Positions 1,166 through 39,389 of a stretch of 39,389 nt of DNA are shown in pieces. Numbering within the stretch: the stretch's first letter is position 1; each line of letters opens with the position of its first letter. Source of the stretch: Escherichia phage vB_EcoP-Ro103C3lw. The notes under the pieces are model-generated. The model saw only the letters and a program-made list of their open reading frames with translations, was not told where the DNA came from and ran no database searches. The stretch lies in the sequence record MN067430; one strand, given 5' to 3'. The position numbers and the translations under genes are program-made.

Positions 1166-1498
1166 ATGGAACGTAACGCTAACGCATACTATGAGCTGCT
1201 GGCTGCAACCGTTGAAGCATTTAACGAGCGTATTCAGTACGACGAAATAGCTGAAGGCGATGATTATCACGATGCGCTGCATGAGGTCGTAGACGGTCAG
1301 GTTCCGCACTATTACCACGAGATTTTCACGGTGATGGCTGCTGATGGTATAGACCACGAGTTCGAAGACTATGGGCTAATGCCTGATACCAAGGATGTGA
1401 CGCGTATATTGCAAGCTCGCATCTATGAGGCGCTTTATAACGATGTGCTTAATAACTCGGATGTGGTCTGGTTTGAGGCTGAAGAGGACTGCGAGTGA
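1166..1498 (+). CDS. ocr: Ocr-like DNA mimic, anti-restriction protein (T7 gp0.3 homolog)
   Basis: 110 aa, very acidic; motifs [52 protein letters not shown] match T7 Ocr as recalled; SD gagagg upstream of ATG. Confidence 0.9.
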
Positions 1499-1653
1499 TG
1501 GTAACTTATGGTCTCTGCCAGAACCATGTAGCCAACGCCCGGATTATGGTCAAGACCGGGCAGTTAAACCACGATGCGACTATGCGTCACCTGAAGGCGG
1601 TCTATGAGGGACGCAAGCGTATTCACGACAGCTTACACGATGAGGGCAAGTAA
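1498..1653 (+). CDS. Small early protein, 51 aa, possible gp0.4-like
   Basis: ATG overlaps the ocr stop (TGATG); same length as T7 gp0.4 with weak pattern similarity (YGL...LK..YE); not in the ORF track because it is under 60 aa. Confidence 0.45.
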   Translation: MVTYGLCQNHVANARIMVKTGQLNHDATMRHLKAVYEGRKRIHDSLHDEGK

Positions 1654-1655
1654 AC

Positions 1656-1781
1656 ATGTACCAGATAACGTATAGCAGTGAACAGGCGTTCTACGATGGG
1701 TGCTACGAGATGATGAGGCGCGGGGCTTGCTACGTGGCTAATCACCAGAGCCTGACCATAACGCTGACGGGTGGTTACTGA
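1656..1781 (+). CDS. Hypothetical small early protein, 41 aa
   Basis: ATG 3 nt after the previous stop; open frame to TGA at 1779..1781; tight packing typical of T7 early genes. Confidence 0.35.
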   Translation: MYQITYSSEQAFYDGCYEMMRRGACYVANHQSLTITLTGGY

Positions 1782-1851
1782 GTGATAGACGAGAGGTCAT
1801 CGACTGATAGGTGGCCTCAAAGATTGCCACTTACATTGATAGGAGTTAACT

Positions 1852-1941
1852 ATGAACATCGGTTACTGGGTATGCTTATCTCCGGTCATCTTTCTGATAG
1901 CTTGGGGACTTCTGGACGCAATCAAGCGAGGGTCATTCTAA
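1852..1941 (+). CDS. Hypothetical small hydrophobic peptide, 29 aa
   Basis: SD AGGAG 7 nt upstream of ATG 1852; translation MNIGYWVCLSPVIFLIAWGLLDAIKRGSF. Confidence 0.4.
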   Translation: MNIGYWVCLSPVIFLIAWGLLDAIKRGSF

Positions 1942-2138
1942 TGAGCTGGGTACTTATGGGTATCTTCGGCTATGGACTTATCGTCTACGTACTGGTGAGT
2001 GACATCAACAAGGCGCGTAAAGTCTACAAATTCAACTATGTACGTATGGGTCGCTGGACTGTACGTCAACCTAACGGGCGATTCATGCGCAACTTAGCAA
2101 ACGTCTGGGATATAGCAACACTTGGGAGCAAACTGTAA
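1941..2138 (+). CDS. Hypothetical small membrane protein, 65 aa
   Basis: ATG overlaps the preceding stop (TAATG); hydrophobic stretch WVLMGIFGYGLIVYVLV; the supplied ORF 1782..2138 extends it upstream from a GTG that lacks an SD. Confidence 0.45.
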   Translation: MSWVLMGIFGYGLIVYVLVSDINKARKVYKFNYVRMGRWTVRQPNGRFMRNLANVWDIATLGSKL

Positions 2139-2464
2139 TGAACAAGTCATACGGGATTAATCTGGTACACTCTATGGACGCAGACATGCAAATGTTAAGC
2201 CTACTGGCTACCGGGTATCGTCACGGAACGTCAAGTCACTCCGCACGTCAACAGCAGGAGAGGGACCGGGTACTGCAAGCAAGACTCCGGGCTGAGGGCC
2301 ATAAGTCCGAGCTGATGTGTCTGGCGTATGGTGGACGACCAATCACCGATGATGGTAAACTTCTGGTCTCAGGCTGGAAGGCGATAGACCAACGGTCAAC
2401 CATCAAGCACACGACTCATGGTGACTTCAGTCATCTCCACGCTAACCCGCTGATATGCAAGTAG
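2138..2464 (+). CDS. Hypothetical early protein, 108 aa
   Basis: ATG overlaps the upstream stop (TAATG); sits where T7 has gene 0.7 but is far shorter and has no recognisable kinase motifs. Confidence 0.5.
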   Translation: MNKSYGINLVHSMDADMQMLSLLATGYRHGTSSHSARQQQERDRVLQARLRAEGHKSELMCLAYGGRPITDDGKLLVSGWKAIDQRSTIKHTTHGDFSHLHANPLICK

Positions 2465-2469
2465 TAATT

Positions 2470-2492
2470 ATTAAACCCTCACTATAGGACTC
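2470..2492 (+). promoter_or_regulatory. Phage RNAP promoter, immediately upstream of the RNAP gene
   Basis: attaaaccctcactataggac; +1 G at 2487. Confidence 0.75.
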
Positions 2493-2560
2493 AAGGTCTA
2501 AGACTTCAGTTAAAGACCAAAGAGACTTAAGTGAAAGACTAACAAACAAGGACTTTAAGT

Positions 2561-5227
2561 ATGAGCGTCATTCAGCTTGAGAAGCATGACTTCTCGGACA
2601 TCTCCAACGCTATCGAGCCGTTTAACATTCTGGCTGACCACTACGGGCAGGACCTCGCAGTCAAACAGCTTCAGCTTGAGCATGAGGCATACACTGAAGG
2701 CGAGCGTCGTTTCATCAAGAATCTTGAGCGTCAGGCTGAGCGCGGGGGGCTGGCTGATAATCAGGTCGCAAGACCATTGATGCAAACTCTGGTCCCTAAA
2801 CTGGCGCAAGCCGTCAAGGAGTGGCACGAGACCCAAGGGTCAACCCGTGGGAAACCTCAGGTCGCCTTCCTGAAGCTGAGCACCGAGTCGAAACCTCGTG
2901 CGCTACTGGTCCAACCCGAGTCGGTGGCGGTCATCGTCCTGAAGATTGCGCTCAGTAAGCTGGTCAAGCCTGAAGGCGTACCGATAACGCCGATGGCCTC
3001 CGCGATTGGTCGCACACTGGAGGATGAAATCCGTTTCGGTCGCATCCGTGACCAAGAGCAAGAGCACTTCAAGAAGACCATCGCCGAGAACCTGAAGAAA
3101 CGCGCTGGCGTGGCCTACAAGAAAGCCTACATGCAAGCGGTCGAAGCCTCCATGCTGGACCAGAAGCAACTGGATGATGCGTGGGGGACTTGGAGTCCTG
3201 ACGAGGCGGTCCACGTAGGAATAAAGATGCTGGAGCTGCTGATTCAATCCACACAACTGGTAGAGCTGAAGCGACACAACGCTGGGAACGTAGCGTCAGA
3301 CGTCGAGATGGTCCACCTGTCAGACTTCTGGGCCAAGAAGATGGCTCAGCGAGGCTACAGCCTTGCGGGTATCGCTCCGGTCTACCAGCCGTGCGTCGTG
3401 CCTCCACGCCCTTGGAACTCAGTGGTCGGTGGTGGGTACTGGGCTAAAGGTCGCAGACCTCTCCCGCTGATGCGCTTAGGGTCGAAGGCTGCTATCGCTC
3501 GCTACGAGGAAGTTTACATGCCTGAAGTCTACGAGGCGGTGAACATCATTCAGCAGACACCGTGGAAGGTGAATAAGAAGGTGCTGGACGTAGTGAACAT
3601 GGTCGAGAAGCTGAACAATACGCCTATCGCAGACATCCCGCAGATGGACCCGATGAAGCCTGAGGAGTACGCAGGTGAGACCGAGGAAGAACTTAAAGCG
3701 TGGAAGAAAGCTGCTGCTGGAATCTATCGCCGCGAGAAGGCCCGACAGTCCCGCCGCTTGTCCCTGAGCTTCATCGTCGGACAGGCGAACAAGTTCTCTC
3801 AGTTCAAGGCCATCTGGTTCCCGTACAACATGGATTGGCGCGGTCGAGTCTACGCGGTCCCGATGTTCAACCCGCAAGGCAACGACATGCAGAAGGGTCT
3901 GCTGACTCTGTCAGTCGGCAAGCCAATCGGTGCGGACGGCTTCAAGTGGCTGAAGGTTCACGGTGCAAACTGCGCGGGTGTCGATAAAGTCACCTTCGAG
4001 GAGCGCATCAAGTGGGTCGAAGACAACCACGACAACATCCTCGCGGCTGCTAAGAGTCCGATGGATAGCATCGACTGGTGGGGCAAGTTAGACTCTCCGT
4101 TCTGCTTCCTCGCGTTCTGCTTCGAGTATGCCGGGGTCATGCACCACGGGCTGAGCTACTCCTGCTCACTGCCTATAGCGTTCGATGGGTCCTGCTCTGG
4201 GATTCAACACTTCAGCGCGATGCTCCGTGACCACGTTGGTGGACATGCGGTCAACCTAACGCCAAGCGGGAAGGTCCAAGACATCTACCGCATTGTGTCC
4301 GACCGGGTGGAAGAACAGCTTAAGGAACTACTGGTAAACGGTAGCGACAACGAAGTCAAGACCTTCGAGGACAAGAAGACAGGCGAAATTACTGAACGTC
4401 TGGTCCTTGGAACTCGTGAGCTGGCCCGTCAGTGGCTGACCTACGGGATGTCACGCACGGTCACTAAACGCTCGGTCATGACTCTGGCCTACGGGTCGAA
4501 GGAATACGGGTTCGCAGACCAAGTGTTTGAGGATACCGTGATGCCAGCGATTGACAACGGCAAGGGCGCGATGTTCACGGACCCAAGCCAAGCGTCCCGC
4601 TTCATGGCTAAGATGATTTGGGATGCAGTGAGCGTGACCGTAGTTGCTGCGGTAGACGCGATGAAGTGGCTCCAAGGCGCTGCTAAACTGCTGGCTGCTG
4701 AGGTCAAGGACAAGAAGACCAAAGAGGTCCTGAAGCCTTGCCTCCCGGTTCACTGGGTCACGCCTGATGGCTTCCCGGTCTGGCAGGAGTATCGCAAGAA
4801 GGACACCACACGTCTTGACCTGATGTTCCTCGGGACTTTCCGTCTCCAGCCGACAGTCAACAAGGGGTCGAGCAAGGAGCTGGACAAGCACAAGCAGGAG
4901 TCAGGCATCAGCCCGAACTTTGTACACTCACAAGACGGCAGTCACCTGAGGAAGACTGTGGTCCACACCCACCGCAAGTATGGCGTGATGTCCTTCGCAG
5001 TGATTCACGATAGCTTCGGGACCATCCCGGCTGACGCTGAGTTCCTGTTCAAAGGTGTCCGTGAGACGATGGTCGAGACCTACCGCGACAACGATGTGCT
5101 GCAAGACTTCTACGAGCAGTTCGCGGACCAGCTTCACGAGAGCCAGCGCGACAAGTTGCCTGAGCTTCCAAAGCGCGGTAAACTGAACATCGAAGACATT
5201 CTGTTATCTGACTTTGCATTCGCCTGA
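2561..5227 (+). CDS. gp1: Single-subunit DNA-directed RNA polymerase (T7 gp1 homolog)
   Basis: 888 aa; long conserved blocks versus T7 RNAP, e.g. WFPYNMDWRGRVYAVPMFNPQGNDM, HGANCAGVDKV, PIAFDGSCSGIQHFSAML, KRSVMTLAYGSKE, NFVHSQDGSHLRKTVV, ends SDFAFA. Confidence 0.97.
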   Translation: MSVIQLEKHDFSDISNAIEPFNILADHYGQDLAVKQLQLEHEAYTEGERRFIKNLERQAERGGLADNQVARPLMQTLVPKLAQAVKEWHETQGSTRGKPQVAFLKLSTESKPRALLVQPESVAVIVLKIALSKLVKPEGVPITPMASAIGRTLEDEIRFGRIRDQEQEHFKKTIAENLKKRAGVAYKKAYMQAVEASMLDQKQLDDAWGTWSPDEAVHVGIKMLELLIQSTQLVELKRHNAGNVASDVEMVHLSDFWAKKMAQRGYSLAGIAPVYQPCVVPPRPWNSVVGGGYWAKGRRPLPLMRLGSKAAIARYEEVYMPEVYEAVNIIQQTPWKVNKKVLDVVNMVEKLNNTPIADIPQMDPMKPEEYAGETEEELKAWKKAAAGIYRREKARQSRRLSLSFIVGQANKFSQFKAIWFPYNMDWRGRVYAVPMFNPQGNDMQKGLLTLSVGKPIGADGFKWLKVHGANCAGVDKVTFEERIKWVEDNHDNILAAAKSPMDSIDWWGKLDSPFCFLAFCFEYAGVMHHGLSYSCSLPIAFDGSCSGIQHFSAMLRDHVGGHAVNLTPSGKVQDIYRIVSDRVEEQLKELLVNGSDNEVKTFEDKKTGEITERLVLGTRELARQWLTYGMSRTVTKRSVMTLAYGSKEYGFADQVFEDTVMPAIDNGKGAMFTDPSQASRFMAKMIWDAVSVTVVAAVDAMKWLQGAAKLLAAEVKDKKTKEVLKPCLPVHWVTPDGFPVWQEYRKKDTTRLDLMFLGTFRLQPTVNKGSSKELDKHKQESGISPNFVHSQDGSHLRKTVVHTHRKYGVMSFAVIHDSFGTIPADAEFLFKGVRETMVETYRDNDVLQDFYEQFADQLHESQRDKLPELPKRGKLNIEDILLSDFAFA

Positions 5228-5240
5228 GGAGGCACTAACT

Positions 5241-5441
5241 ATGAAATTCGCACACAAGCAAACTGGCGTTAAAGGCGGTACTCAAATCGTGACTGTGACC
5301 GAGCACAACGGAAAGGGTCTGGCGAAGACCACGATTATCCCGACCGAGATGTCCAAGCAACTTAACGTCCCGTTCAAATGGCTGGTGCAGAAGGTCGAAC
5401 AGGCCCACGAACAGGCCCTAACCGAGGCAGCAACGAAATGA
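5241..5441 (+). CDS. Hypothetical protein, 66 aa
   Basis: SD aggagg 5 nt upstream of ATG 5241; no homolog recognised. Confidence 0.5.
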   Translation: MKFAHKQTGVKGGTQIVTVTEHNGKGLAKTTIIPTEMSKQLNVPFKWLVQKVEQAHEQALTEAATK

Positions 5442-5520
5442 CAGACCTTAAGTGGCTGGCCTTATGGCTAGCCTTCTTAGCAGTGTACATTTTAATCCAA
5501 CGCAGAAGAGGCTAATCACC

Positions 5521-5976
5521 ATGTTCAACCGTAAACTGAAAGCACGTATCGCATCTCTTGAAGCAACCGTCCAGCGTCAGGACCGCAACCTTGAGCTGGC
5601 TAACCGGGAGCACTCACGACTGAGGGCCAAGATTCAGAAGGCTGAAGAGAAACGTGAAGTCGACCCATTCCGTGTGAAGCGCATGGTCGGCCTGAAGTTC
5701 AAGGCGCTGTTCAATGGTCTATACCAGCCTACTGAGTTCAAGACCGGACCGGGGCCGTGTGGCAAGACAGTTACGCACTTCACCACGAGTCGGACCGAGC
5801 GTGAGCTGACCATCCACCAGCACCACACGGATGGCTCTCAGAAGGACTTCGAGTATCGACTGAGTGACATCGACGGTCGCATCCAGTACGACTACGAGAC
5901 CGTGCTAGTCTACGGAGAAGAGGCAGAACGGGAGCGAGCACACTACGTCTTCCTGAGACGTCAACGGTTCGCTTAA
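5521..5976 (+). CDS. Hypothetical protein, about 151 aa, with predicted coiled-coil N-terminus
   Basis: Open frame 5452..5976; ATG 5521 chosen as the most likely start (MFNRKLKARIASLEATVQRQDRNLELANREHSRLRAKIQKAEEKR); no homolog recognised. Confidence 0.5.
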   Translation: MFNRKLKARIASLEATVQRQDRNLELANREHSRLRAKIQKAEEKREVDPFRVKRMVGLKFKALFNGLYQPTEFKTGPGPCGKTVTHFTTSRTERELTIHQHHTDGSQKDFEYRLSDIDGRIQYDYETVLVYGEEAERERAHYVFLRRQRFA

Positions 5977-5994
5977 ACCCTCACTATAGGATTA
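5972..5994 (+). promoter_or_regulatory. Phage RNAP promoter (gene 1.1 position)
   Basis: gcttaaaccctcactataggatt; +1 G at 5989. Confidence 0.8.
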
Positions 5995-6062
5995 GACTAA
6001 AGGTCGCTGACTTCCAGTGGCCTTCATGATTAACCCTAAACTCAATCACTGGAGATTTAACC

Positions 6063-6242
6063 ATGTATCAGAACACCATCAACTTCGAGCGCATCCGTGA
6101 ACGTCAGCAGACTGAAGGATACATGCCTAAGGGCCGCAAGCTGAACAAGACCAAACGTGGCGGTGGCGTCAAGGGTGCTTTCCGCAACGCTGAAGGTAAA
6201 GACTCTCTGGTCAACCAAGAGAAGTATTTCGTAGGAGCATAA
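6063..6242 (+). CDS. gp1.1: gp1.1-like small basic protein, 59 aa
   Basis: KGRKLNKTKRGGG motif resembles T7 gp1.1 (KGRKLNKTKRD); not in the ORF track because it is under 60 aa. Confidence 0.7.
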   Translation: MYQNTINFERIRERQQTEGYMPKGRKLNKTKRGGGVKGAFRNAEGKDSLVNQEKYFVGA

Positions 6243-6246
6243 CGCT

Positions 6247-6510
6247 ATGGGCCGACTTTACAGTGGCAACCTCAACGCTTTCAAAGCAGCGTGTAACAGG
6301 CTCTATCAGCTAGACTTCGCTGTCATTTCTCAGGAGTTTCAAGACCTTGCGTCACGCCAAGAGTGCATGAGACTCAGGGTCGAGGACCGGGCTGGTAACA
6401 TATTCGCTCTTGAGTCCTTCGCACACTACGACGAAGACGTACTGTACAATACTGCAACCGACTTCCTTAATGGTCTCGCTGACCAACTCGACACATGGAG
6501 CAAATCATAA
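6247..6510 (+). CDS. gp1.2: gp1.2-like inhibitor of host dGTPase
   Basis: 87 aa; MGRLYSGNLNAFKAA...RLRVEDRAGN...HYDEDVLYN matches T7 gp1.2 as recalled. Confidence 0.85.
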   Translation: MGRLYSGNLNAFKAACNRLYQLDFAVISQEFQDLASRQECMRLRVEDRAGNIFALESFAHYDEDVLYNTATDFLNGLADQLDTWSKS

Positions 6511-7571
6511 TGACAACGACTATCAAAACTAACCCACATCGAGCTGTAGATTACTCTGAGTCAGGCGTTACGAAAGCACTGGCAGCAGCCGGGTCGCTGG
6601 AAGCTGAAGTGAAGTATGATGGTGTGCGGCTGAACCTCCCGGTATTCCCTACGGGTGAGACCCAATGGTTGAGCCGTGAGTCTAAACCTCTTCCGGCCCT
6701 GAGCTGGCTATCAGTCCTGACCAACATCGACAACATCGTGGAAGACCAACAGAGGGCCAGCGACTGGCGGTGGTTCCTGAAGCAAGCTGGCTACGAAGGA
6801 ACTGGCCTGATGATTGATGGTGAGGTCATGGTCAAGGGTGTAGACTTCAATACGTCTTCAGGTCTCATCCGAACGAAGTGGTTGAAGCCAAGCAACGAGG
6901 ATTTTGCTGAGTGCTATCCCGGCAGAGGAACTAAAGTCCCATTCTGGCTGGCAACACGGAACATCAAGGTAGTCGTCTATGGTATCGTGGACCTTAACGT
7001 CATCCTCGACCCGAAAGCCGAAGGTCCTATCCATAGCGTCACACGCCTGAAGGCCGAGGCTATCGTCCCTCTCCTCCAGAAATACTTCCCGGAAATCGAC
7101 TGGGTTCTGTCTGAGTCACACACGGTCTATGACCTTGAGTCGCTCAACTCCCTGTACGAACAGAAGCGTCTGGAAGAACACGAGGGTCTGGTAGTCAAGG
7201 ACCCACTGGGTAAATACAAGCGTGGCAAGAAGTCAGGCATGTGGAAGATGAAGCCTGAGGAGACCATCGACGGGACCGTGTGTGGCCTCGTGTGGGGGAC
7301 TCCGGGTAAGGCCAACGAAGGTAAGGTGATTGGCTTTGAGGTTCTGCTTGAGGATGGCATGGTGGTTAACGCCTGTGGTCTGACTGAAGAACAGAAGGAC
7401 GAGTTCACGGAAGCCTGTAACACTGATACATATATTCTCGGTGGAATCAATCCATACGAAGGCTGGCAGTGTGAAGTCCTCTTCATGGAGCGGTTCCCAG
7501 ATGGTTCCCTCCGTCACCCTAGCTTCAAGTGTTGGCGAGGTACGGAAGACAATCCAACCGTTAAGAGTTAA
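6510..7571 (+). CDS. gp1.3: ATP-dependent DNA ligase (T7 gp1.3 homolog)
   Basis: MTTTIKTNPHRAV...EVKYDGVR (adenylation lysine motif KxDG)...MIDGEVMVKGVDFNTSSGLIRTKW...EGLVVKDPLGKYKRGKKSGMWKMKPE...SLRHPSF...RGTEDNP; ATG 6510 overlaps the gp1.2 stop. Confidence 0.92.
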   Translation: MTTTIKTNPHRAVDYSESGVTKALAAAGSLEAEVKYDGVRLNLPVFPTGETQWLSRESKPLPALSWLSVLTNIDNIVEDQQRASDWRWFLKQAGYEGTGLMIDGEVMVKGVDFNTSSGLIRTKWLKPSNEDFAECYPGRGTKVPFWLATRNIKVVVYGIVDLNVILDPKAEGPIHSVTRLKAEAIVPLLQKYFPEIDWVLSESHTVYDLESLNSLYEQKRLEEHEGLVVKDPLGKYKRGKKSGMWKMKPEETIDGTVCGLVWGTPGKANEGKVIGFEVLLEDGMVVNACGLTEEQKDEFTEACNTDTYILGGINPYEGWQCEVLFMERFPDGSLRHPSFKCWRGTEDNPTVKS

Positions 7572-7581
7572 CTAAACGTCA

Positions 7582-7617
7582 ACCCAGTGGTCTTCGCGGA
7601 CTGCTGGGTTTCTTTGC
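7582..7617 (+). terminator. Intrinsic terminator after the ligase gene (T7 TE position)
   Basis: Hairpin acccag...ctgggt followed by tttctttg. Confidence 0.55.
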
Positions 7618-7628
7618 GTCTGGGCCTC

Positions 7629-7651
7629 TTTAAACCCTCACTATAGGACAA
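7629..7651 (+). promoter_or_regulatory. Phage RNAP promoter
   Basis: tttaaaccctcactataggaca; +1 G at 7646. Confidence 0.8.
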
Positions 7652-7677
7652 CCCTAACCGACCAAAGGAGAAACCTT

Positions 7678-7932
7678 ATGTCTAAGAACTTAATGTTCAA
7701 CCGTTTCAGTCAGACCTTCCACCTGTCCAACAATCCGTTTGCTTGCATTAAGCGTAACGAGAAGGTGGGCTTCTTCGGGAAGGCCGTTAAGCTGGCACCT
7801 ACAGTCTACGCTCTGATTGTTCCGAGCAAAGTAGAAGAGGCTCGCCAGAAGAAAGAGACCAGCGTACCAGTGGTCTACACCAAGTGGCCTCGCGTTCGTC
7901 TGGCGCTGGAGTTCATCAAGGAGGAGTTCTAA
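7678..7932 (+). CDS. Hypothetical protein, 84 aa (gene 1.5/1.6 position)
   Basis: SD aaggag before ATG 7678; position-based assignment only. Confidence 0.55.
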   Translation: MSKNLMFNRFSQTFHLSNNPFACIKRNEKVGFFGKAVKLAPTVYALIVPSKVEEARQKKETSVPVVYTKWPRVRLALEFIKEEF

Positions 7933-8309
7933 TGGCTCATTATTGTGTGGACTGTCAGGAAGACTATACGGATTGCACCTGTCACCTGAAATATCAGGCC
8001 CCAGCGCCAAGTTGTTCACCAACGTATACTGGCGGGTCTGCGGACTATTACCAAGTGCCTATCACCCATACCACGACTCCCGGCCGCCCGGACTACATCG
8101 CTGAATGCAACGACATTATCGAAGCTCTCGGTATGAACTTTGCGGAAGGCAATGCGTTCAAGGCACTGTGGCGTCGAGCTGCTCAACGGACTTTAGGTCT
8201 GCGTAAGGCTGGCGCTAAGGACGATGGGCTATACGATGCTGAGAAGGTCGAGTTCTTCGGTGCTCGTCTGGTAGCCCAAAGCAAGGCGGTAGGTCATGAC
8301 TCCAAGTAG
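7932..8309 (+). CDS. Hypothetical Cys-rich protein, 125 aa (gene 1.7 position)
   Basis: ATG overlaps the upstream stop (TAATG); N-terminal cluster CVDCQEDYTDCTCH suggests a zinc ribbon; shorter than T7 gp1.7. Confidence 0.5.
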   Translation: MAHYCVDCQEDYTDCTCHLKYQAPAPSCSPTYTGGSADYYQVPITHTTTPGRPDYIAECNDIIEALGMNFAEGNAFKALWRRAAQRTLGLRKAGAKDDGLYDAEKVEFFGARLVAQSKAVGHDSK

Positions 8310-8387
8310 CTGGTGCTTTAGGCAGTGGGTCTCAACCGGGAACGTGGACTACCTGTCCATGTACCATATGTGGAAGGAGAAAGGACT

Positions 8388-8564
8388 ATGACCGTTTACC
8401 GTGGCATCTTCGGGTCTCTGTACGCAGTGAACCAACACGGAGTCGTCTGCGTTAAGCCTGACGGTAGCGAGTGGTGCGCATCACATTACAGTGTCGAGGG
8501 ATTCCAAGACGCTATTGATAAAGGCTACATGACGGAGGTGGTCGATGCCCAAGGAGTCAACTGA
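8388..8564 (+). CDS. Hypothetical protein, 58 aa (gene 1.8 position)
   Basis: SD ggaaggag before ATG 8388; the supplied ORF begins upstream at 8325. Confidence 0.45.
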
Positions 8565-8715
8565 GAAGAAGTACATCGTGGAACTTGAAGGGCGCGTTCA
8601 GTCCTTTGACGTCCCGGTCTACGCTAAGTCTCTGGACGAGGCGACCTTGAAGGCTCAGGAATATGAAGACGCTGGCTTTGTTGTCGGACGCATTCACCCT
8701 GAGCATAAACAATAA
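8545..8715 (+). CDS. gp2: gp2-like inhibitor of host RNA polymerase
   Basis: 56 aa; [14 protein letters not shown] resembles T7 Gp2 (SFEVPIYAETLDEA); not in the ORF track because it is under 60 aa. Confidence 0.75.
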
Positions 8716-8733
8716 ACCCTCACTGTAGGACAA
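8711..8733 (+). promoter_or_regulatory. Phage RNAP promoter, variant (A to G at -4)
   Basis: aataaaccctcactgtaggaca; +1 G at 8728. Confidence 0.7.
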
Positions 8734-8758
8734 CCATTAACTTTAGGAGATTTACCCA

Positions 8759-9457
8759 ATGGCTAAAGAGCAACTGAAAACTTTCACCACTCCGGTCGCT
8801 GGTCTGGTCGAGCCGTATAGCTGGCTGAACAAGGCAGACACCAAGTTCAACGAGCGCGGTGAACACAAAGTCAACCTGACCTTCAGTCTGGATGACCCGA
8901 AAGTCCGCAAGATGATTGACGTCTTGCAGAAGATTCACGACGATGCGTATGCGAAAGCACTCGCAGACCACGAGAAGAACCCACCTCAGGTTCAGCGTGG
9001 CAAGAAGCCCATCGAACCGCGTGAAGGCGATATGCCGTGGATTGAGAATGGTGATGGTACTGTTACCCTGAAGTTCAAATGCTTTGCGTCTTACTTGAAA
9101 GACGGCAAGTCCGAGCCTATCGTATTACGGTTCTACGACACCGATGCTAAACTCATCCGTGACGTCCCGAATATTGGCACCGGGTCTAAGCTGAAAGTCA
9201 AGTTCAAAGTCCTGCCGTTCAAGTGGAACGCTGCGACTGGTGCAAGCGTTAAGCTGCAACTCGAATCCGTGCTGCTGGTCGAACTCAAAGAGTGGTCCGG
9301 TGACGGCACTGGTGGTGATGGTGGCTGGGGTGACGATGAAGACATCGGCTCCGGTGGCTACAAATCGTCTACTGACGGTGACTTCGGGTCTGACGACTTC
9401 GGTGAAGATGCCGATGGTGGCGATGACTCTGCGTCCGGTGGCGACTACGACTTCTAA
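8759..9457 (+). CDS. gp2.5: Single-stranded DNA-binding protein (T7 gp2.5 homolog)
   Basis: 232 aa, same length as T7 gp2.5; MAKEQL...EPYSWLNKAD...RGKKPIEPREGDMPW..NGDGT.TLKFKC.AS...KLQLESVLLVEL and acidic C-terminal tail ending DYDF. Confidence 0.92.
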   Translation: MAKEQLKTFTTPVAGLVEPYSWLNKADTKFNERGEHKVNLTFSLDDPKVRKMIDVLQKIHDDAYAKALADHEKNPPQVQRGKKPIEPREGDMPWIENGDGTVTLKFKCFASYLKDGKSEPIVLRFYDTDAKLIRDVPNIGTGSKLKVKFKVLPFKWNAATGASVKLQLESVLLVELKEWSGDGTGGDGGWGDDEDIGSGGYKSSTDGDFGSDDFGEDADGGDDSASGGDYDF

Positions 9458-28848: not shown

Positions 28849-29298
28849 ATGAACAACGAGACAGCCAGTGAGAGACTGGCACGTCTTTCCAAGGTTACGT
28901 ACACTGGCTGTATCGAGTTCACAGGAAAGTTGGATAGCAATGGGTATGGCAGGGTTATGGTGGACAGGAATAGACACCTAGTTCATCGCTTGTCCTACCA
29001 GATACATAAAGGCCCAATCCCTGATGGAATGGTTGTGATGCACTCTTGTGATAATAGAGGGTGTATAAACCCTGAGCATCTTTCAGTTGGAACTCAGCGG
29101 GACAATATGCAGGACAAGATGACCAAGGGTAGACAGTCCCGTGGAGCGAGACTAAGGAAATCGTCATTGACGGATTTAGACATTATGGCGATTCGCTCAA
29201 GCCTCTCATCTACTTCAGAGCTATCCGATCGATACTCAGTAAGTAGAGTAACCATCCGCAATATTCAGAGGAGAAAGACATGGCAACACGTGGAGTAA
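28849..29298 (+). CDS. HNH homing endonuclease
   Basis: 149 aa; HNH core VVMHSCDNRGCINPEHLSVGTQRDN; C-terminal helix-turn-helix-like segment LSDRYSVSRVTIRNIQRRKTWQHV; SD aaggag; last 19 nt overlap the gp16 start; no gene at this position in T7. Confidence 0.85.
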   Translation: MNNETASERLARLSKVTYTGCIEFTGKLDSNGYGRVMVDRNRHLVHRLSYQIHKGPIPDGMVVMHSCDNRGCINPEHLSVGTQRDNMQDKMTKGRQSRGARLRKSSLTDLDIMAIRSSLSSTSELSDRYSVSRVTIRNIQRRKTWQHVE

Positions 29299-32200: not shown

Positions 32201-33176
32201 GACGAACTACCTGTTAGACGCCGGACGTCAAGGCTTCTTGTCTGACATCGTGGAACATAGTCTGACTGGCAGTAAGCGTAAGTTCGATGACCGTTGGTTG
32301 AAGACTGCCGGTATCTCCGCTGACCAGTGGAAGGGCATTAAGTCCCTAATCCGTGAGTCGGTGACTCGTGGTCCAGATGGGAAGTACACCATCAAGGACA
32401 AGAAAGCGTTTAGTCAGGACCCAAGGGCGATGGACCTCTGGCGTATGGGTGACACCATCGCTGATGAGACCCTGCTCCGTCCGCACAAGCTGAGCAACAT
32501 GGACGCCAAGGCTTACGGTCCTCTCGCTAAGACTGTCTTGCAGTTTAAGAACTTCGTTATCAAGTCTATCAACGGTCGAACCATGCGTACCTTCTACAAT
32601 GCCACCAAGAACAACCGAGCTATGGATGCTGCATTGTCAACGGTTATGTCTATGGGTCTGGCTGGGATGTACTACATGGCTCAGGCGCACATCAAGGCAT
32701 ACGCTATGCAGGACGGTCGTGACCGTGAGTACCTCAAGCAGGCCCTGAACCCGACGATGATTGGCTATGCGGCTCTGTCCCGTAGCTCTCACCTCGGTGG
32801 TCCTCTTGGGGTCGCCAACATTCTGGGTGGCATCGCTGGGTATGAGGACACTAAGTTGCTCCGTTCGTCTATCCTTCCGCGCTCACCTACCGAGAAGCCT
32901 GAACGTGCCATTTCCTATGGTGCTGCTAAGAGCGACCCGGTTATGAACGTGGTAGGCAACTTCCTTGAGCAGGTCCCAGCTTTCGGCTACGCTGCTAACG
33001 TTGGCGCTTCGGCTTACAACTTGGCTGGCTACCTCAAGTCTGATACCCGTGTGAACGAGCGGGACTACATGACCGGGATGTATAACACCTTCCGCGAGCT
33101 GGTCCCGAACGACCCAATCACTCAGAAGCTCCTGCTGGGAACCTTTGAGGAACAGGGGATTCACATCAAGGATTAA
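29280..33176 (+). CDS. gp16: Internal virion protein D (T7 gp16 homolog)
   Basis: 1298 aa; from about residue 190 onward collinear with T7 gp16 (RSTWFGFGGAAEAE, PTRWNNHKWSREELDQIR, AGVIGAGVDPL, RLEARETARN, DLVRSPTGMQSGASGK, GTYVPHVY, SRPEVKARVDE, AYGISH, NGDIAIM, FFAKNAYMG, NGTTNYLLDA, DPRAMDLWR, LRPHK, ALSRSS); N-terminal ~150 aa not recognisably similar. Confidence 0.93.
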   Translation: MATRGVRNANPGNIRKSKDQWEGAVGDDGAFVIFDSPESGVRALAKNLQSYGRQGYDSIEKIITRWAPPSENDTQSYINSVVAATGIPATQSIDLSNPDVLASLSEAIGYHETGSRYDPEVYKTGVSRALSGAGGITPKTPPVSANVFDALTEGLKSKPKVALGENLPGVTGMNIEGQAPEAPNESFGEMFYKSTGETLDQRADRSTWFGFGGAAEAEVKNSMVGVAIRAGQTEDSLDVIGDVFNPTRWNNHKWSREELDQIRNAGVLPQYYGVITGGSPQNLTELINLALENQKLDAEKAKAGSGAQLAAGVIGAGVDPLTYVPIAGQVGKGGKLVNKMFTVAAQSGALAGASELARTSVAGGDAHVAEAIMGGALFAGGMTAIGDAIGKALGKSTNEFAGPATRLEARETARNVDGQDLSRLPIREGEETFSHQGVKFADVPNEPGSVRLEDGSILIGENPLNPKTRQVFDEVIEPERAAAGVNLGGLTEIGLKLLRSENPEIRGLAADLVRSPTGMQSGASGKIGTTASDVFERLRAVDHRFYNDIDDAVTQALRDPYFQTNFNRDTGAFRQDIYQRVALAIEDGSGNLKAELTPGELKVYDLLKNQFDAKREMMENPAMFGRVDAQSIFPGSRFKGTYVPHVYSNQMKQLFINELGSPEALQEAIKKSWLTSYASRPEVKARVDEALLEANPNLKPEELAAAVDKYANDKAYGISHTDLFERSSVMEENINGLVGLENNNFLEARNLFDSDMSIILPNGQPFNVNSLREWDMDKIVPAYNRRVNGDIAIMAGTGKTTKEMKDTVETMMNRAGDDGKLKGEVATLRDTLKILTGRARRDGADDAAFSTVMRTMTDLSFFAKNAYMGVQNLTEIGGMLARGNVRAMLHGIPMFRDLAFRNKKMGASEIKDLHNVVFGKELDDSIRPSKQDVIDRLRAYSDLSKPVATALGSVKYYTGELAVRSPFTKVLNGTTNYLLDAGRQGFLSDIVEHSLTGSKRKFDDRWLKTAGISADQWKGIKSLIRESVTRGPDGKYTIKDKKAFSQDPRAMDLWRMGDTIADETLLRPHKLSNMDAKAYGPLAKTVLQFKNFVIKSINGRTMRTFYNATKNNRAMDAALSTVMSMGLAGMYYMAQAHIKAYAMQDGRDREYLKQALNPTMIGYAALSRSSHLGGPLGVANILGGIAGYEDTKLLRSSILPRSPTEKPERAISYGAAKSDPVMNVVGNFLEQVPAFGYAANVGASAYNLAGYLKSDTRVNERDYMTGMYNTFRELVPNDPITQKLLLGTFEEQGIHIKD

Positions 33177-33194
33177 ACCCTCACTATAGGAAAC
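33172..33194 (+). promoter_or_regulatory. Phage RNAP promoter (gene 17 position)
   Basis: gattaaaccctcactataggaaac; +1 G at 33189; leader contains the hairpin gggacgctaccacaggtccc. Confidence 0.8.
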
Positions 33195-33240
33195 GGGACG
33201 CTACCACAGGTCCCATTTATTTCAACACTAAGGAGAACCA

Positions 33241-35331
33241 ATGGCTAATACCACTATTACGCAGTTCCCTACTGGGCAGACTCAGTACAAGATTAACTTT
33301 GACTATCTGGCCCGGACCTTCGTGGTGGTCACTTTAATCAACAGTGCTGACCAAGCGGACAACAAGGTCCTGACGGTAGGTAATGACTATCGGTTCATCA
33401 CTGCCACGACTATTGAGCTTCTGGCCGACCAGACGGGCTTCGATATTGTCCAGATTCACCGCTTCACGGGGACCGGACTTCTGGTCAGCTTCCGTGACGG
33501 CTCGGTCCTGACTGCCAACGACTTAACCACGTCCGAGCTTCAGGCTATCCATATCGCCGAGGAGGGCCGAGACCAGACTTCAGGTCTTGCCAAGCAGTAT
33601 GCGGACCAAGCGATTGCTGCTGGTACTGACGCTCAGTCTATCTTAGACAACATCATCAAGATGGGAAAGAACGGTTACACTCCAGTTGGCTCCTTTGAGG
33701 CCGGGGCGACCGTCAACCTTCAGAATGACGCTGTTCAGTTTGGCACTGGTGCTGCTATTACTCACTGGCGCTGGGAAGGCACACTACCTAAAGTCGTTCC
33801 ACCTAACTCGACACCAACGTCTACTGGTGGTATCGGTCACGGTAAGTGGATTGACGTAACGGACGCGACTCTGCGTGGTGCGCTGGCTCAACTGACTGGT
33901 GCCTCTCTGGTCATGACCTCTAACGGTAAGACCGTGGAGGAGCGCCTGTCTGGGACCTTACGTGTCGTGGACTCGGTGAAGGACTTGGAGTCGCTGGTTC
34001 CGCAGCAGGACGGTGAGATTGTCATCGCTCGTTGGGCTGCTTATCCGAAGCTGGTGGGCGTCAACTGTGGTCCGGTGGGCGGCGGTATGTTCATCGCCTA
34101 CAACGACAATCCGGCAGTCCCTAAAGATGGTGGCTTCTTTGTGGACAGTCCGTCTCCGACCCTTAAGTGGCGACGTATGGCTGAGAACACAGGCTATTAT
34201 CCGGTTGCTTGGTGGGGCGTAATTCCTGATCACTATACCGATAACGCTGACAACATCACTCGTGCGCACAACTTTGCGAAGCGAGCTTGGCGTGTTCTTC
34301 AGTACGACTTCGGTACATACCTGACGTCCAAGGCTGTTCCAATCTACAGTCGCATGGGCATCAAGGGGACCGGACGTGCTGACGGTACTGTCATTGCCAA
34401 GACCACGAACGATGCGTTCAACCTGCTCAAAGCTGACGGCACTGTAGGTGAGGCCGTGGATGCTCTGGCAGTAATGGTCCCTGATGCTTACGACCGAGCG
34501 TCTCCTTACATGGACAGCTTCTGTATCCACGGACGTATCGAGGACATTATGTTTAAACGTAATGGTCTCTCAGAGGCTAACTACAACACCATGCGTCCTC
34601 AGTATGGTCTGTTCATGAACAAGGGTGGCTCACCTGTCCTCAAGCATACCAACTTCGAGGGTGCGTATATCGGCATTCGAGCCTACGTGTGCTTCTCGTC
34701 AACCATCTCTGCGGTCGCCACAACCAACTGGCGCGGCAAGGGTTACGCTGGTCTTTATATTGAGGACTACCGTGATGGCAGCTTGATGTCTTCAGGCACG
34801 AGTAATGACATCCGTCTGTTCCAATCCCGAGGGTATCAGCATGGGGTAAGCATGTCCCGTATGCAGTACACCACGATGATCAACTGCTCTGTAGAGGAGT
34901 GCTTCAAGTCTCCGGGTGAAACTTACGCTTACGCCTATAAGTTCATCGACCCGTTCTCTATTCATCTCTCCACCTGCGCGACTGAGTTCGTTGAAGGCGG
35001 TCAGATTCAGATTACAGGCTTCGCTAACCCCGGATTCAGACCGTCCATCACTATCACCGAATACTTTGCGGTTGACCAGCAGAACCCTGCTACGGCCCAC
35101 AATATCATCGACATTGATAATGGTGGTGTTGCACGGTGTACGGTCAAGGTTATTGGTGGTGACTGGACGCATGACCCTCGCACACCTAACGTGGGTTCCC
35201 CTAGAGCTGCTGGTTCTGGGACTGTAGTCACTACTATCGGGACCACTGGCGCTGAAGGTCCTAACTGGCTGCTGAGCGGTGGTGCTAAAGTGGTTGACAT
35301 CGAGAACGCTACGAACACACGGAGTTCTTAA
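33241..35331 (+). CDS. gp17: Tail fibre protein (T7 gp17 homolog; N-terminal anchor conserved, C-terminal region divergent)
   Basis: 696 aa; N-terminal ~150 aa ([14 protein letters not shown]...VLT.GNDYRF...[12 protein letters not shown]...IHIAEEGRD) matches T7 gp17; the remaining ~550 aa show no T7-like similarity. Confidence 0.9.
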
Positions 35332-35371
35332 ACTTTGGGTCAAGGACGACCCGTTTAACAATGGAGGTATT

Positions 35372-35566
35372 ATGATTGAGTTCGACTTCAAGAATGAGGT
35401 CCTCAAAGCCTCGCCTATCGTCGGGACCGCTGCGGCTGATGGTGCCAGTCGGTTCTTCTTTGGGTTAACACTCAACGAATGGTTCTACGTCGCTGCCATC
35501 GCGTACACCGTGGTGCAGATTGGCGTCCTAATTTACAAGACGATTAAGAGCGGAGGTAAGACATGA
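35372..35566 (+). CDS. gp17.5: Class II holin (T7 gp17.5 homolog)
   Basis: 64 aa from ATG 35372 (SD ggaggt); KASPIVGTAAADGASRFFFGLTLNEWFYVAAIAYTVVQIG is near-identical to the T7 holin. Confidence 0.9.
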   Translation: MIEFDFKNEVLKASPIVGTAAADGASRFFFGLTLNEWFYVAAIAYTVVQIGVLIYKTIKSGGKT

Positions 35567-35826: not shown

Positions 35827-35882
35827 GTGTTAGACTCAAGGTCATCTATTGGTGGCCTTTATGATTAACACTAGGAGGTGGT

Positions 35883-36254
35883 ATGGTATCGGAAGATGTT
35901 ATAAAGGCTAACGTTCAAGCTGCTCGTAAATTACGAGAGGAACGGGAGGAACGAAGAAAGAGGACTAAGCGCATTTCGCAGATAAAGAGCCTATATGGTC
36001 TCACGCTTGAACAGTTCGAGGACCTGATGGACTCGGTGGGAAGCTCATGCGAGATTTACAAGACTCCGCTTAAAGTAGGTGGGAAGAAAGGAGATACAGA
36101 CTCTGCGTGTATTGACCACTGTCATTCCACTGGGGTGATTAGAGGGGTTTTATGCCGCAAGTGCAATGCAGCAATTGGCGCACTGGGAGATACTACATCT
36201 AGTGTCCAGCGGGCTGTTTCATACCTAGAGAAGACGCTTGTACGTCGATTCTGA
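35883..36254 (+). CDS. Endonuclease VII-family protein (recombination endonuclease VII-like zinc/HNH-type nuclease)
   Basis: 123 aa; SLYGLTLEQFEDLM....SCEIY..........CIDHCHSTGVIRGVLCRKCNAAIGALGD fits the Endonuclease_7 family pattern (YG.T.E.Y......C..C.....DH.H.TG..RG.LC..CN...G); SD aggagg; no gene at this position in T7. Confidence 0.75.
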   Translation: MVSEDVIKANVQAARKLREEREERRKRTKRISQIKSLYGLTLEQFEDLMDSVGSSCEIYKTPLKVGGKKGDTDSACIDHCHSTGVIRGVLCRKCNAAIGALGDTTSSVQRAVSYLEKTLVRRF

Positions 36255-39198: not shown

Positions 39199-39389
39199 TC
39201 TCACAGTTCAAGAACCTCAAGTCTCCCCCCATAGGGTCACTCTCAGTCAGACCAAAGGCCCTACCCCTAGACCGAAGGTCTAAACCTAAAGTCTTTGACC
39301 AGAAGTCAGGACCAGAAGTCTACCTCAAGGGCCTATATCTAGTGGTTGGGACCAGAGGTCGGGACTATATGTTGTGTCACTGAGTCTCT
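39199..39389. repeat. Right direct terminal repeat (DTR), 191 bp
   Basis: Exact copy of 1..191. Confidence 0.95.

Follow-up and report, generated by a model that had tools for sequence, protein, structure and literature searches.

Escherichia phage vB_EcoP-Ro103C3lw (hereafter Ro103C3lw) is a Kayfunavirus of the T7 group, and its single receptor-binding protein (RBP) is a modular tailspike that combines a T7-type anchor and a neck with a beta-helix which probably binds, and most likely cleaves, the O103 O-antigen. In the mechanism proposed here, the T7 gp17-type N-terminal domain (residues 1 to ~150) would plug the tailspike into the tail, and the Tail_spike_N neck (~150–235) would join this anchor to the C-terminal beta-helix (~236–696). 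The beta-helix would recognise the O103 O-antigen of the host lipopolysaccharide (LPS) and most likely cut its chain as an endoglycosidase (hydrolase). By such cleavage the virion would make its way through the layer of O-antigen and reach the outer membrane; the enzyme carried by diffusing virions would yield a spreading halo. [quoted passage not shown] Tailspikes of this kind can serve for serogroup detection, for retargeting tailocins or phages and as anti-virulence enzymes, uses already in print for this protein and its relatives. Also published are the modular anchor, the halo-based inference of a depolymerase, the O103 assignment, an AlphaFold beta-helix and candidate acidic pockets (PMC8303462, PMC10408124, PMC11522302). 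To these the present analysis makes a modest addition: exact junction coordinates, a wider distribution of the receptor-binding cassette, which includes a Vectrevirus chassis, and a narrowing of the catalytic candidates to E552 and E582.

The window, i.e., the whole stretch of DNA that was analysed, comprises 39,389 nucleotides (sequence record MN067430) with a GC content of 52.84%, in line with the published genome (39,389 bp, 52.8% GC; Zhang et al. 2021, PMC8303462). The nearest relatives named in that work, GW1, SH4, SH5, Ro45lw and Pisces, were the same ones recovered by our sequence searches. The tailspike gene is the open reading frame (ORF) at 33241–35331 (+ strand, stop codon included), and its 696-aa product is identical at 696 of 696 residues to GenBank QDH94159.1 (MN067430), named "putative tail fiber protein"; the start position given in the initial annotation, 33700, corresponds to residue 154. 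The features of the gene and of its upstream region are as follows.

33173–33190, + strand: TTAAACCCTCACTATAGG, phage-RNA-polymerase promoter-like, upstream of the tailspike gene and overlapping the gene 16 stop codon
2471, 5973, 7630, 8712, 10810, 12896, 17189, 20012, 20988, 25458, 33173 and 38576, + strand: copies of TTAAACCCTCACTATAGG with at most 3 mismatches
33230–33235, + strand: Shine-Dalgarno-like AAGGAG, read from the sequence, 5 nt before the ATG at 33241
33241–33690, + strand: T7 gp17-type N-terminal anchor, residues 1–150 (PF03906)
33688–33945, + strand: Tail_spike_N domain and short linker (neck), residues ~150–235 (PF18668)
33912–33945, + strand: 5' recombination junction, residues ~224–235, where nucleotide similarity to sister Kayfunaviruses stops
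33946–35331, + strand: receptor-binding module, residues 236–696, stop codon included in the range
35331–35331, + strand: 3' recombination junction, last base of the stop codon, where blastn similarity to sister phages restarts

The gene order of T7 is kept, with a gene for a 1298-aa gp16-like internal virion protein followed by the tailspike gene and then, in order, by those for a holin, the small terminase subunit, an endonuclease VII-like protein, an Rz spanin and the large terminase subunit. The TTAAACCCTCACTATAGG-type core occurs 12 times in the window at 3 mismatches or fewer, each time on the + strand, whereas 0.01 copies would be expected by chance, and from its likeness to promoters of the T7/T3 group we take it to be a phage promoter. 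A scan for sigma-70 promoters and intrinsic terminators around the tailspike gene returned no more than chance. In the mechanical ORF list the holin runs from 35279 to 35566 (+ strand), with a GTG start at 35279 that overlaps the end of the tailspike gene. The true start is likely the ATG at 35372, which is preceded by GGAGG; the resulting protein (35372–35566, 64 aa) matches the phrog_920 holin family over its full length. Positions 1–191 and 39199–39389 of the window are identical and constitute a direct terminal repeat of 191 bases, as expected for a complete genome of the T7 group. Two nuclease ORFs were also noted. One encodes an HNH endonuclease of 149 aa (28849–29298, + strand; phrog_59, E 6e-34) between the gp15-like and gp16-like genes and is probably a mobile homing-endonuclease insertion. 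The other, located between the genes for the small terminase and Rz, is endonuclease VII-like and encodes 123 aa (35883–36254, + strand; phrog_2914, E 3e-28). GW1 lacks it (alignment gap at 35872–36240), and U8, a K1-specific phage with 98% identity to Ro103C3lw in this region, has it.

The anchor and the neck were delimited by profile and structure comparisons. Pfam PF03906, the N-terminal domain of the phage T7 tail fibre, matched residues 12–115 with 76.5 bits (cut-off 25.2). The full-length T7 gp17 chain 7boz aligned to residues 9–117 only (E 2.8e-19), the alignments of chains 7boz and 8e4g fell within residues 8–117, and no match to T7 gp17 was found beyond this N-terminal part (residues 9–117). 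By analogy with T7 tail structures, this domain would attach the tailspike to the tail. PF18668 (Tail_spike_N, TSP1/Gp66 N-terminal domain) matched residues 150–208 with 55.2 bits (cut-off 25), and chains of CBA120 TSP1, TSP3 and TSP4 aligned to residues ~141–235, the Tail_spike_N part. Residues 1–236 aligned to PDB 9lna (E 2e-112) and are common to GW1, SH4, Dev2 and Shigella phages at ~75% amino acid identity. Sequence comparisons thus depict the neck as a conserved element, common to sister Kayfunaviruses and to many unrelated tailspikes. The initial annotation had stated that only ~150 residues match T7 gp17 and that the rest is unrelated. Confinement of the likeness to the N-terminus was borne out, within the narrower limits given above (PF03906, 12–115; 7boz, 9–117). 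The border has to be moved, since residues 150 to ~235 belong to Tail_spike_N (PF18668) and are ~75% identical in sister Kayfunaviruses, and the protein is foreign from ~225–236 onwards.

Nucleotide comparisons with sister phages located the ends of the foreign part. Blastn similarity stopped at 33911 for GW1 and at 33942 for MopsHU1, Dev2 and the Shigella phages. At the protein level, residues identical to GW1 dropped from 16 of 20 (residues 201–220) to 9 of 20 (221–240) and 2 of 20 (241–260). Nucleotide identity to GW1, which is 92–95% through gene 16, fell to 70–76% over 33351–33950, was gone past ~33950 and was back at 35331, with values of 93–97%. The receptor-binding module is thus a cassette with defined borders, one at residue ~225–235 and one at the stop codon. 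It appears to have been gained by horizontal exchange, and the foreign module begins at about residue 225–236 (window ~33912–33946). Because the anchor-coding part of gene 17 (33201–33950) is only 70–76% identical to GW1, versus 92–97% in the flanks, the anchor itself either was part of the exchanged patch or changes much faster than the DNA around it. In the comparison with U8, a K1-specific Kayfunavirus, blastn similarity stopped at 33578 (residue ~113) and restarted at 35331, at 98%. A megablast search with the tailspike gene alone against the phage collection gave no match, because MN067430 was absent from the collection and the anchor is only 70–76% identical to its relatives. The exact exchange junctions should be useful for engineering chimeras.

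The predicted structure, a confident monomer model, is an all-beta right-handed helix. In the receptor-binding module, a right-handed parallel beta-helix with a capping helix is flanked by a small beta domain at the N-terminus and by a short C-terminus, likewise of beta structure. The coils are stacked, solved tailspikes are the nearest structural neighbours, and in the fold search the nearest solved structures were capsule depolymerases of Acinetobacter and Klebsiella phages. Generic Pfam beta-helix profiles scored below threshold (PF13229, 14.2 bits with a cut-off of 25.9; PF12708 (Pect-lyase), 10.9 bits with a cut-off of 27); membership of the beta-helix tailspikes rests on the fold because these profiles are too distant. 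The tailspike is most likely a homotrimer; trimers have been modelled for its homologues (PMC11522302). Conservation in the family alignment extends to the C-terminus, with no extra domain. A reading with a C-terminal chaperone was rejected, as no Peptidase_S74 or ICA chaperone domain, of the kind carried by K1F gp17 and AS12 gp42, was found among Pfam hits at E ≤ 1. Also rejected was an SGNH esterase tailspike of the kind of G7C gp63.1, given the beta-helix fold and the lack of any SGNH, lipase or esterase domain among Pfam hits at the same E limit.

These results support the interpretation of the initial annotation, which had envisaged a beta-helical tailspike rather than a simple fibre and had proposed structure prediction as a check; the model matched beta-helix depolymerases, and not the T7 shaft and tip. 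Its remark that no obvious coiled-coil heptads follow residue 150 agrees with a crude heptad scan, in which residues 151–696 showed no extended register. The described richness in Gly, Thr and Asn holds for Gly (11.0% in residues 151–696 versus 8.3% in nine other large Ro103C3lw proteins) and for Thr (9.0 versus 5.2%), and is marginal for Asn (5.3 versus 4.4%). Of the two activities put forward, depolymerase or esterase, the fold and the published halos favour the former, and the domain searches just described gave nothing for the latter.

The module was searched for in sequence collections. Residues 245–685 fall in phrog_38237 (E 5e-117), a PHROGs family with no annotated function. A translated search of ~50,700 phage records found the module in only six, listed here with their identities.

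PAS7 tailspike, annotated as putative O103 antigen binding protein: 44%
O103:H25 phage TL-2011b, two records: 44%
Two Aeromonas veronii phages: 38–39%
One 111-kb record labelled Enterococcus: 29%

A word-indexed collection of 5.8 billion proteins, queried with the single sequence and with a profile, yielded 6–8 relatives, and an exhaustive HMM/profile search gave ~27 full-length clusters at 50% identity (E < 1e-60), followed by a sharp drop in score. Among the index relatives, two proteins of 597 aa, including one from Yersinia aldovae, have an N-terminus of the P22 head-binding type. The full 696-aa sequence recurred with 98% identity (P0001) in a faecal metagenome of a Campylobacter diagnostic study (ENA ERZ928790 / ERR1766290), where the tailspike gene (1421–3511) is followed by the holin gene in the same order as in Ro103C3lw; its occurrence suggests that close relatives of Ro103C3lw circulate in gut samples. 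The nearest relative apart from P0001, with 54% identity (P0002), is encoded at a contig end; this contig is ~90% identical to Vectreviruses of E. coli. A 779-aa protein with 52% identity (P0003; locus 4275–9299) adjoins a second spike of 882 aa with Tail_spike_N and WcaM-like domains, with a gene for a Cap_depo domain directly upstream, and looks like part of a branched multi-spike phage bearing the same module. Precomputed hits of P0001 and relatives to PF27114 (Phage_tail_beta) were flagged "faint" or "weak". A scan of bacterial genomes with one peptide pattern, which amounts to no census, revealed two loci with the module, in Morganella morganii and in an Acinetobacter metagenome-assembled genome. 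Combined, these occurrences depict a cassette that is rare yet mobile and that follows at least five kinds of N-terminus. Two records labelled Enterococcus deserve a remark: PQ520381.1 (phage IME_EF3, 5140 bp) carries a T7/Kayfunavirus-type anchor with 64% amino acid identity, and OR844942.1 (phage Efm 3-10, 111 kb) carries the beta-helix module at 29%. Spikes of enterobacterial podophages typically have such sequences; the two records may be mislabelled or be mixed assemblies.

E. coli DH5alpha, a strain without O-antigen, is among the bacteria lysed by Ro103C3lw, so that lysis may not depend strictly on the O103 antigen; its "++" score suggests that the O-antigen is a barrier removed by the spike and not an essential receptor. 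Of the E. coli and Salmonella strains in the host-range test, the phage lysed only the two O103:H2 strains and DH5alpha, whose score appears in Table 1 and is undiscussed in the text of that paper, which calls the phage O103-specific (PMC8303462). Halos of Ro103C3lw widened from 0.72 to 2.15 cm over 27 h (PMC8303462), which is evidence at the level of the phage only. In published work Ro103C3lw, with an RBP of group B, figures among the single-RBP phages whose serogroup specificity was verified at the phage level, and the PAS7 homologue of its module redirects an R2 tailocin towards O103 strains. The O103-specific RBP subtype is defined by at least 30% amino acid identity across the receptor-binding domain and the same host serogroup (Pas et al. 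2023); 44% identity to the PAS7 and TL-2011b proteins and an O103 host (PMC8303462) place the tailspike in it. Family membership alone does not fix the glycan, judging from relatives with 38–43% identity in Aeromonas, Yersinia, Morganella and Acinetobacter. A literature search on the Ro103C3lw tailspike and its O103 homologues found no activity assay of purified protein, product analysis or mutant.

To narrow the catalytic candidates, 33 family members were aligned and the seven candidate residues published for PAS7 (PMC11522302) were mapped onto the tailspike, with the following outcome.

PAS7 D166: S370 in the tailspike, acidic residue lost here
PAS7 E177: D381, mostly acidic in the family
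PAS7 E268: E473, 85% acidic in the family
PAS7 E347: E552, codon 34894–34896, + strand, acidic in 33 of 33, candidate catalytic carboxylate
PAS7 E348: E553, variable in the family
PAS7 E377: E582, codon 34984–34986, + strand, Glu in 33 of 33, candidate catalytic carboxylate
PAS7 D407: D612, codon 35074–35076, + strand, Asp restricted to nearer family members

E552 and E582 are also kept in the solved depolymerase 24qi, at ~21% overall identity. Together with D612 they form an acidic ladder with a spacing of exactly 30 residues, with one residue on each of three consecutive coils of the model, in matching strands (fragment strands 315–317, 345–349 and 374–378). In the model the three carboxylates would be stacked about one coil rise apart, an arrangement consistent with the published candidate pair of PAS7, E377/D407, at 5.0 Å (PMC11522302). 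We infer that E552 and E582, with D612 on the next coil, are the best catalytic candidates, and D381/E473 is a candidate second site. A literature search on Belisarius gp86 (24qi) found no paper from which known catalytic residues could be transferred, and none are given for AS12 gp42 in the available part of an Acinetobacter tail-fibre review. The shorter list should aid mutagenesis. The ladder E552/E582 is common to the tailspike and an Acinetobacter capsule depolymerase. Tentatively, a broader picture can be drawn, which we consider possible but somewhat doubtful: the catalytic centre would be E552/E582 (plus D612), so that the PAS7 D166 cluster would be non-catalytic, specificity would be set elsewhere in the groove, and the spike would remove a shield rather than supply an essential receptor. 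On this picture the serogroup rule of at least 30% identity may over-predict, because a module with 38–54% identity is used by phages or prophages of E. coli and also of Aeromonas, Yersinia, Morganella and Acinetobacter.

Four other explanations of the C-terminal region were weighed. The beta-helix could be an adhesin that binds the O103 O-antigen without cleaving it, the halo arising from lysis from without or from another enzyme. This is improbable, since halos that go on expanding for more than 24 h classically point to a diffusing depolymerase, the closest structural neighbours of the beta-helix are enzymes, and E552 and E582 are invariant across the 33 relatives and in 24qi, solved as a "tailspike depolymerase". 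Slightly less probable still is a substrate other than LPS-linked O-antigen, such as a capsule or an exopolysaccharide. The capsule depolymerases found as nearest solved structures would fit it, and the paper describing the phage does not say whether the halo reflects degradation of CPS, EPS or LPS (PMC8303462); however, in the 14 STEC strains assayed there lysis followed the O103 serogroup, two further phages or prophages of O103 strains have homologous modules, and that of PAS7 redirects a tailocin to such strains. Cleavage of the O103 O-antigen thus continues to be the preferred reading, and its chemistry bears on a third possibility, namely that the module is a polysaccharide lyase or an esterase/deacylase instead of a glycoside hydrolase. 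Beta-elimination by lyases needs a uronic acid. The O103 unit, a pentasaccharide, contains, as reported, two GlcNAc, GalNAc, Glc and 3-hydroxybutanoyl-aminofucose, with no uronic acid and no O-acetyl listed. Because uronic acid is missing from the unit, beta-elimination is excluded chemically and hydrolysis is likely; this, with no O-acetyl listed as a target for an esterase and no SGNH, lipase or esterase domain detected, makes the third possibility very unlikely. A literature search for the linkage of the repeat unit found only its composition. The O-antigen of Salmonella O55 is reported to be related to that of O103 (title of Liu et al. 2010, cited in PMC12093740). Finally, a T7-type coiled-coil shaft and tip diverged beyond recognition, which has the common N-terminal anchor and nothing else in its favour, has a negligible chance of being correct and is refuted by the confident all-beta right-handed helix of the model, by sequence and fold searches that gave no T7 gp17 shaft or tip match, and by the lack of a heptad pattern.

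Comparison with known systems situates the tailspike among phages that combine related anchors with distinct spikes. Its beta-helix module is homologous to those of PAS7 (WMX18832.1) and TL-2011b (AEW24599.1), with 44% identity over ~410 residues (PMC10408124, PMC11522302), and all three come from O103 hosts. D381, E473, E552, E582 and D612 match published PAS7 candidates, whereas PAS7 D166 is Ser370 here. The three are unlike in their anchors, the N-terminus of PAS7 being short and set on a Slopekvirinae chassis and that of TL-2011b being of Uetakevirus type. More distant are the depolymerases of Acinetobacter phages Belisarius gp86 (24qi) and AS12 gp42 (6eu4), with ~20% identity, whose substrates are Acinetobacter capsules; AS12 gp42 ends in a Peptidase_S74 chaperone domain, and none was found in the Ro103C3lw tailspike. 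The K1F gp17 endosialidase and the related U8 protein belong to the same genus, Kayfunavirus, and share the gene position and the principle of an anchor with an enzymatic spike, but their enzymatic module, an endo-N-acetylneuraminidase, is unrelated to that of Ro103C3lw. With T7 gp17 the tail-attachment domain is in common (residues 9–117), and the coiled-coil shaft and tip of T7 are replaced in Ro103C3lw by the Tail_spike_N neck and the beta-helix. The tail fibre of Cronobacter phage GW1 and PDB 9lna, both of 832 aa, have an anchor and neck ~76% identical to residues 1–236 of the tailspike, and the aligned stretch of 9lna is identical to the N-terminus of the GW1 fibre at 226 of 236 positions. 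By contrast, the C-terminal module of GW1 is unlike that of Ro103C3lw and opens, just past the junction, with the motif GDSMTAGFD, which suggests an SGNH esterase. If so, the same anchor would bear a different enzyme in a sister phage.
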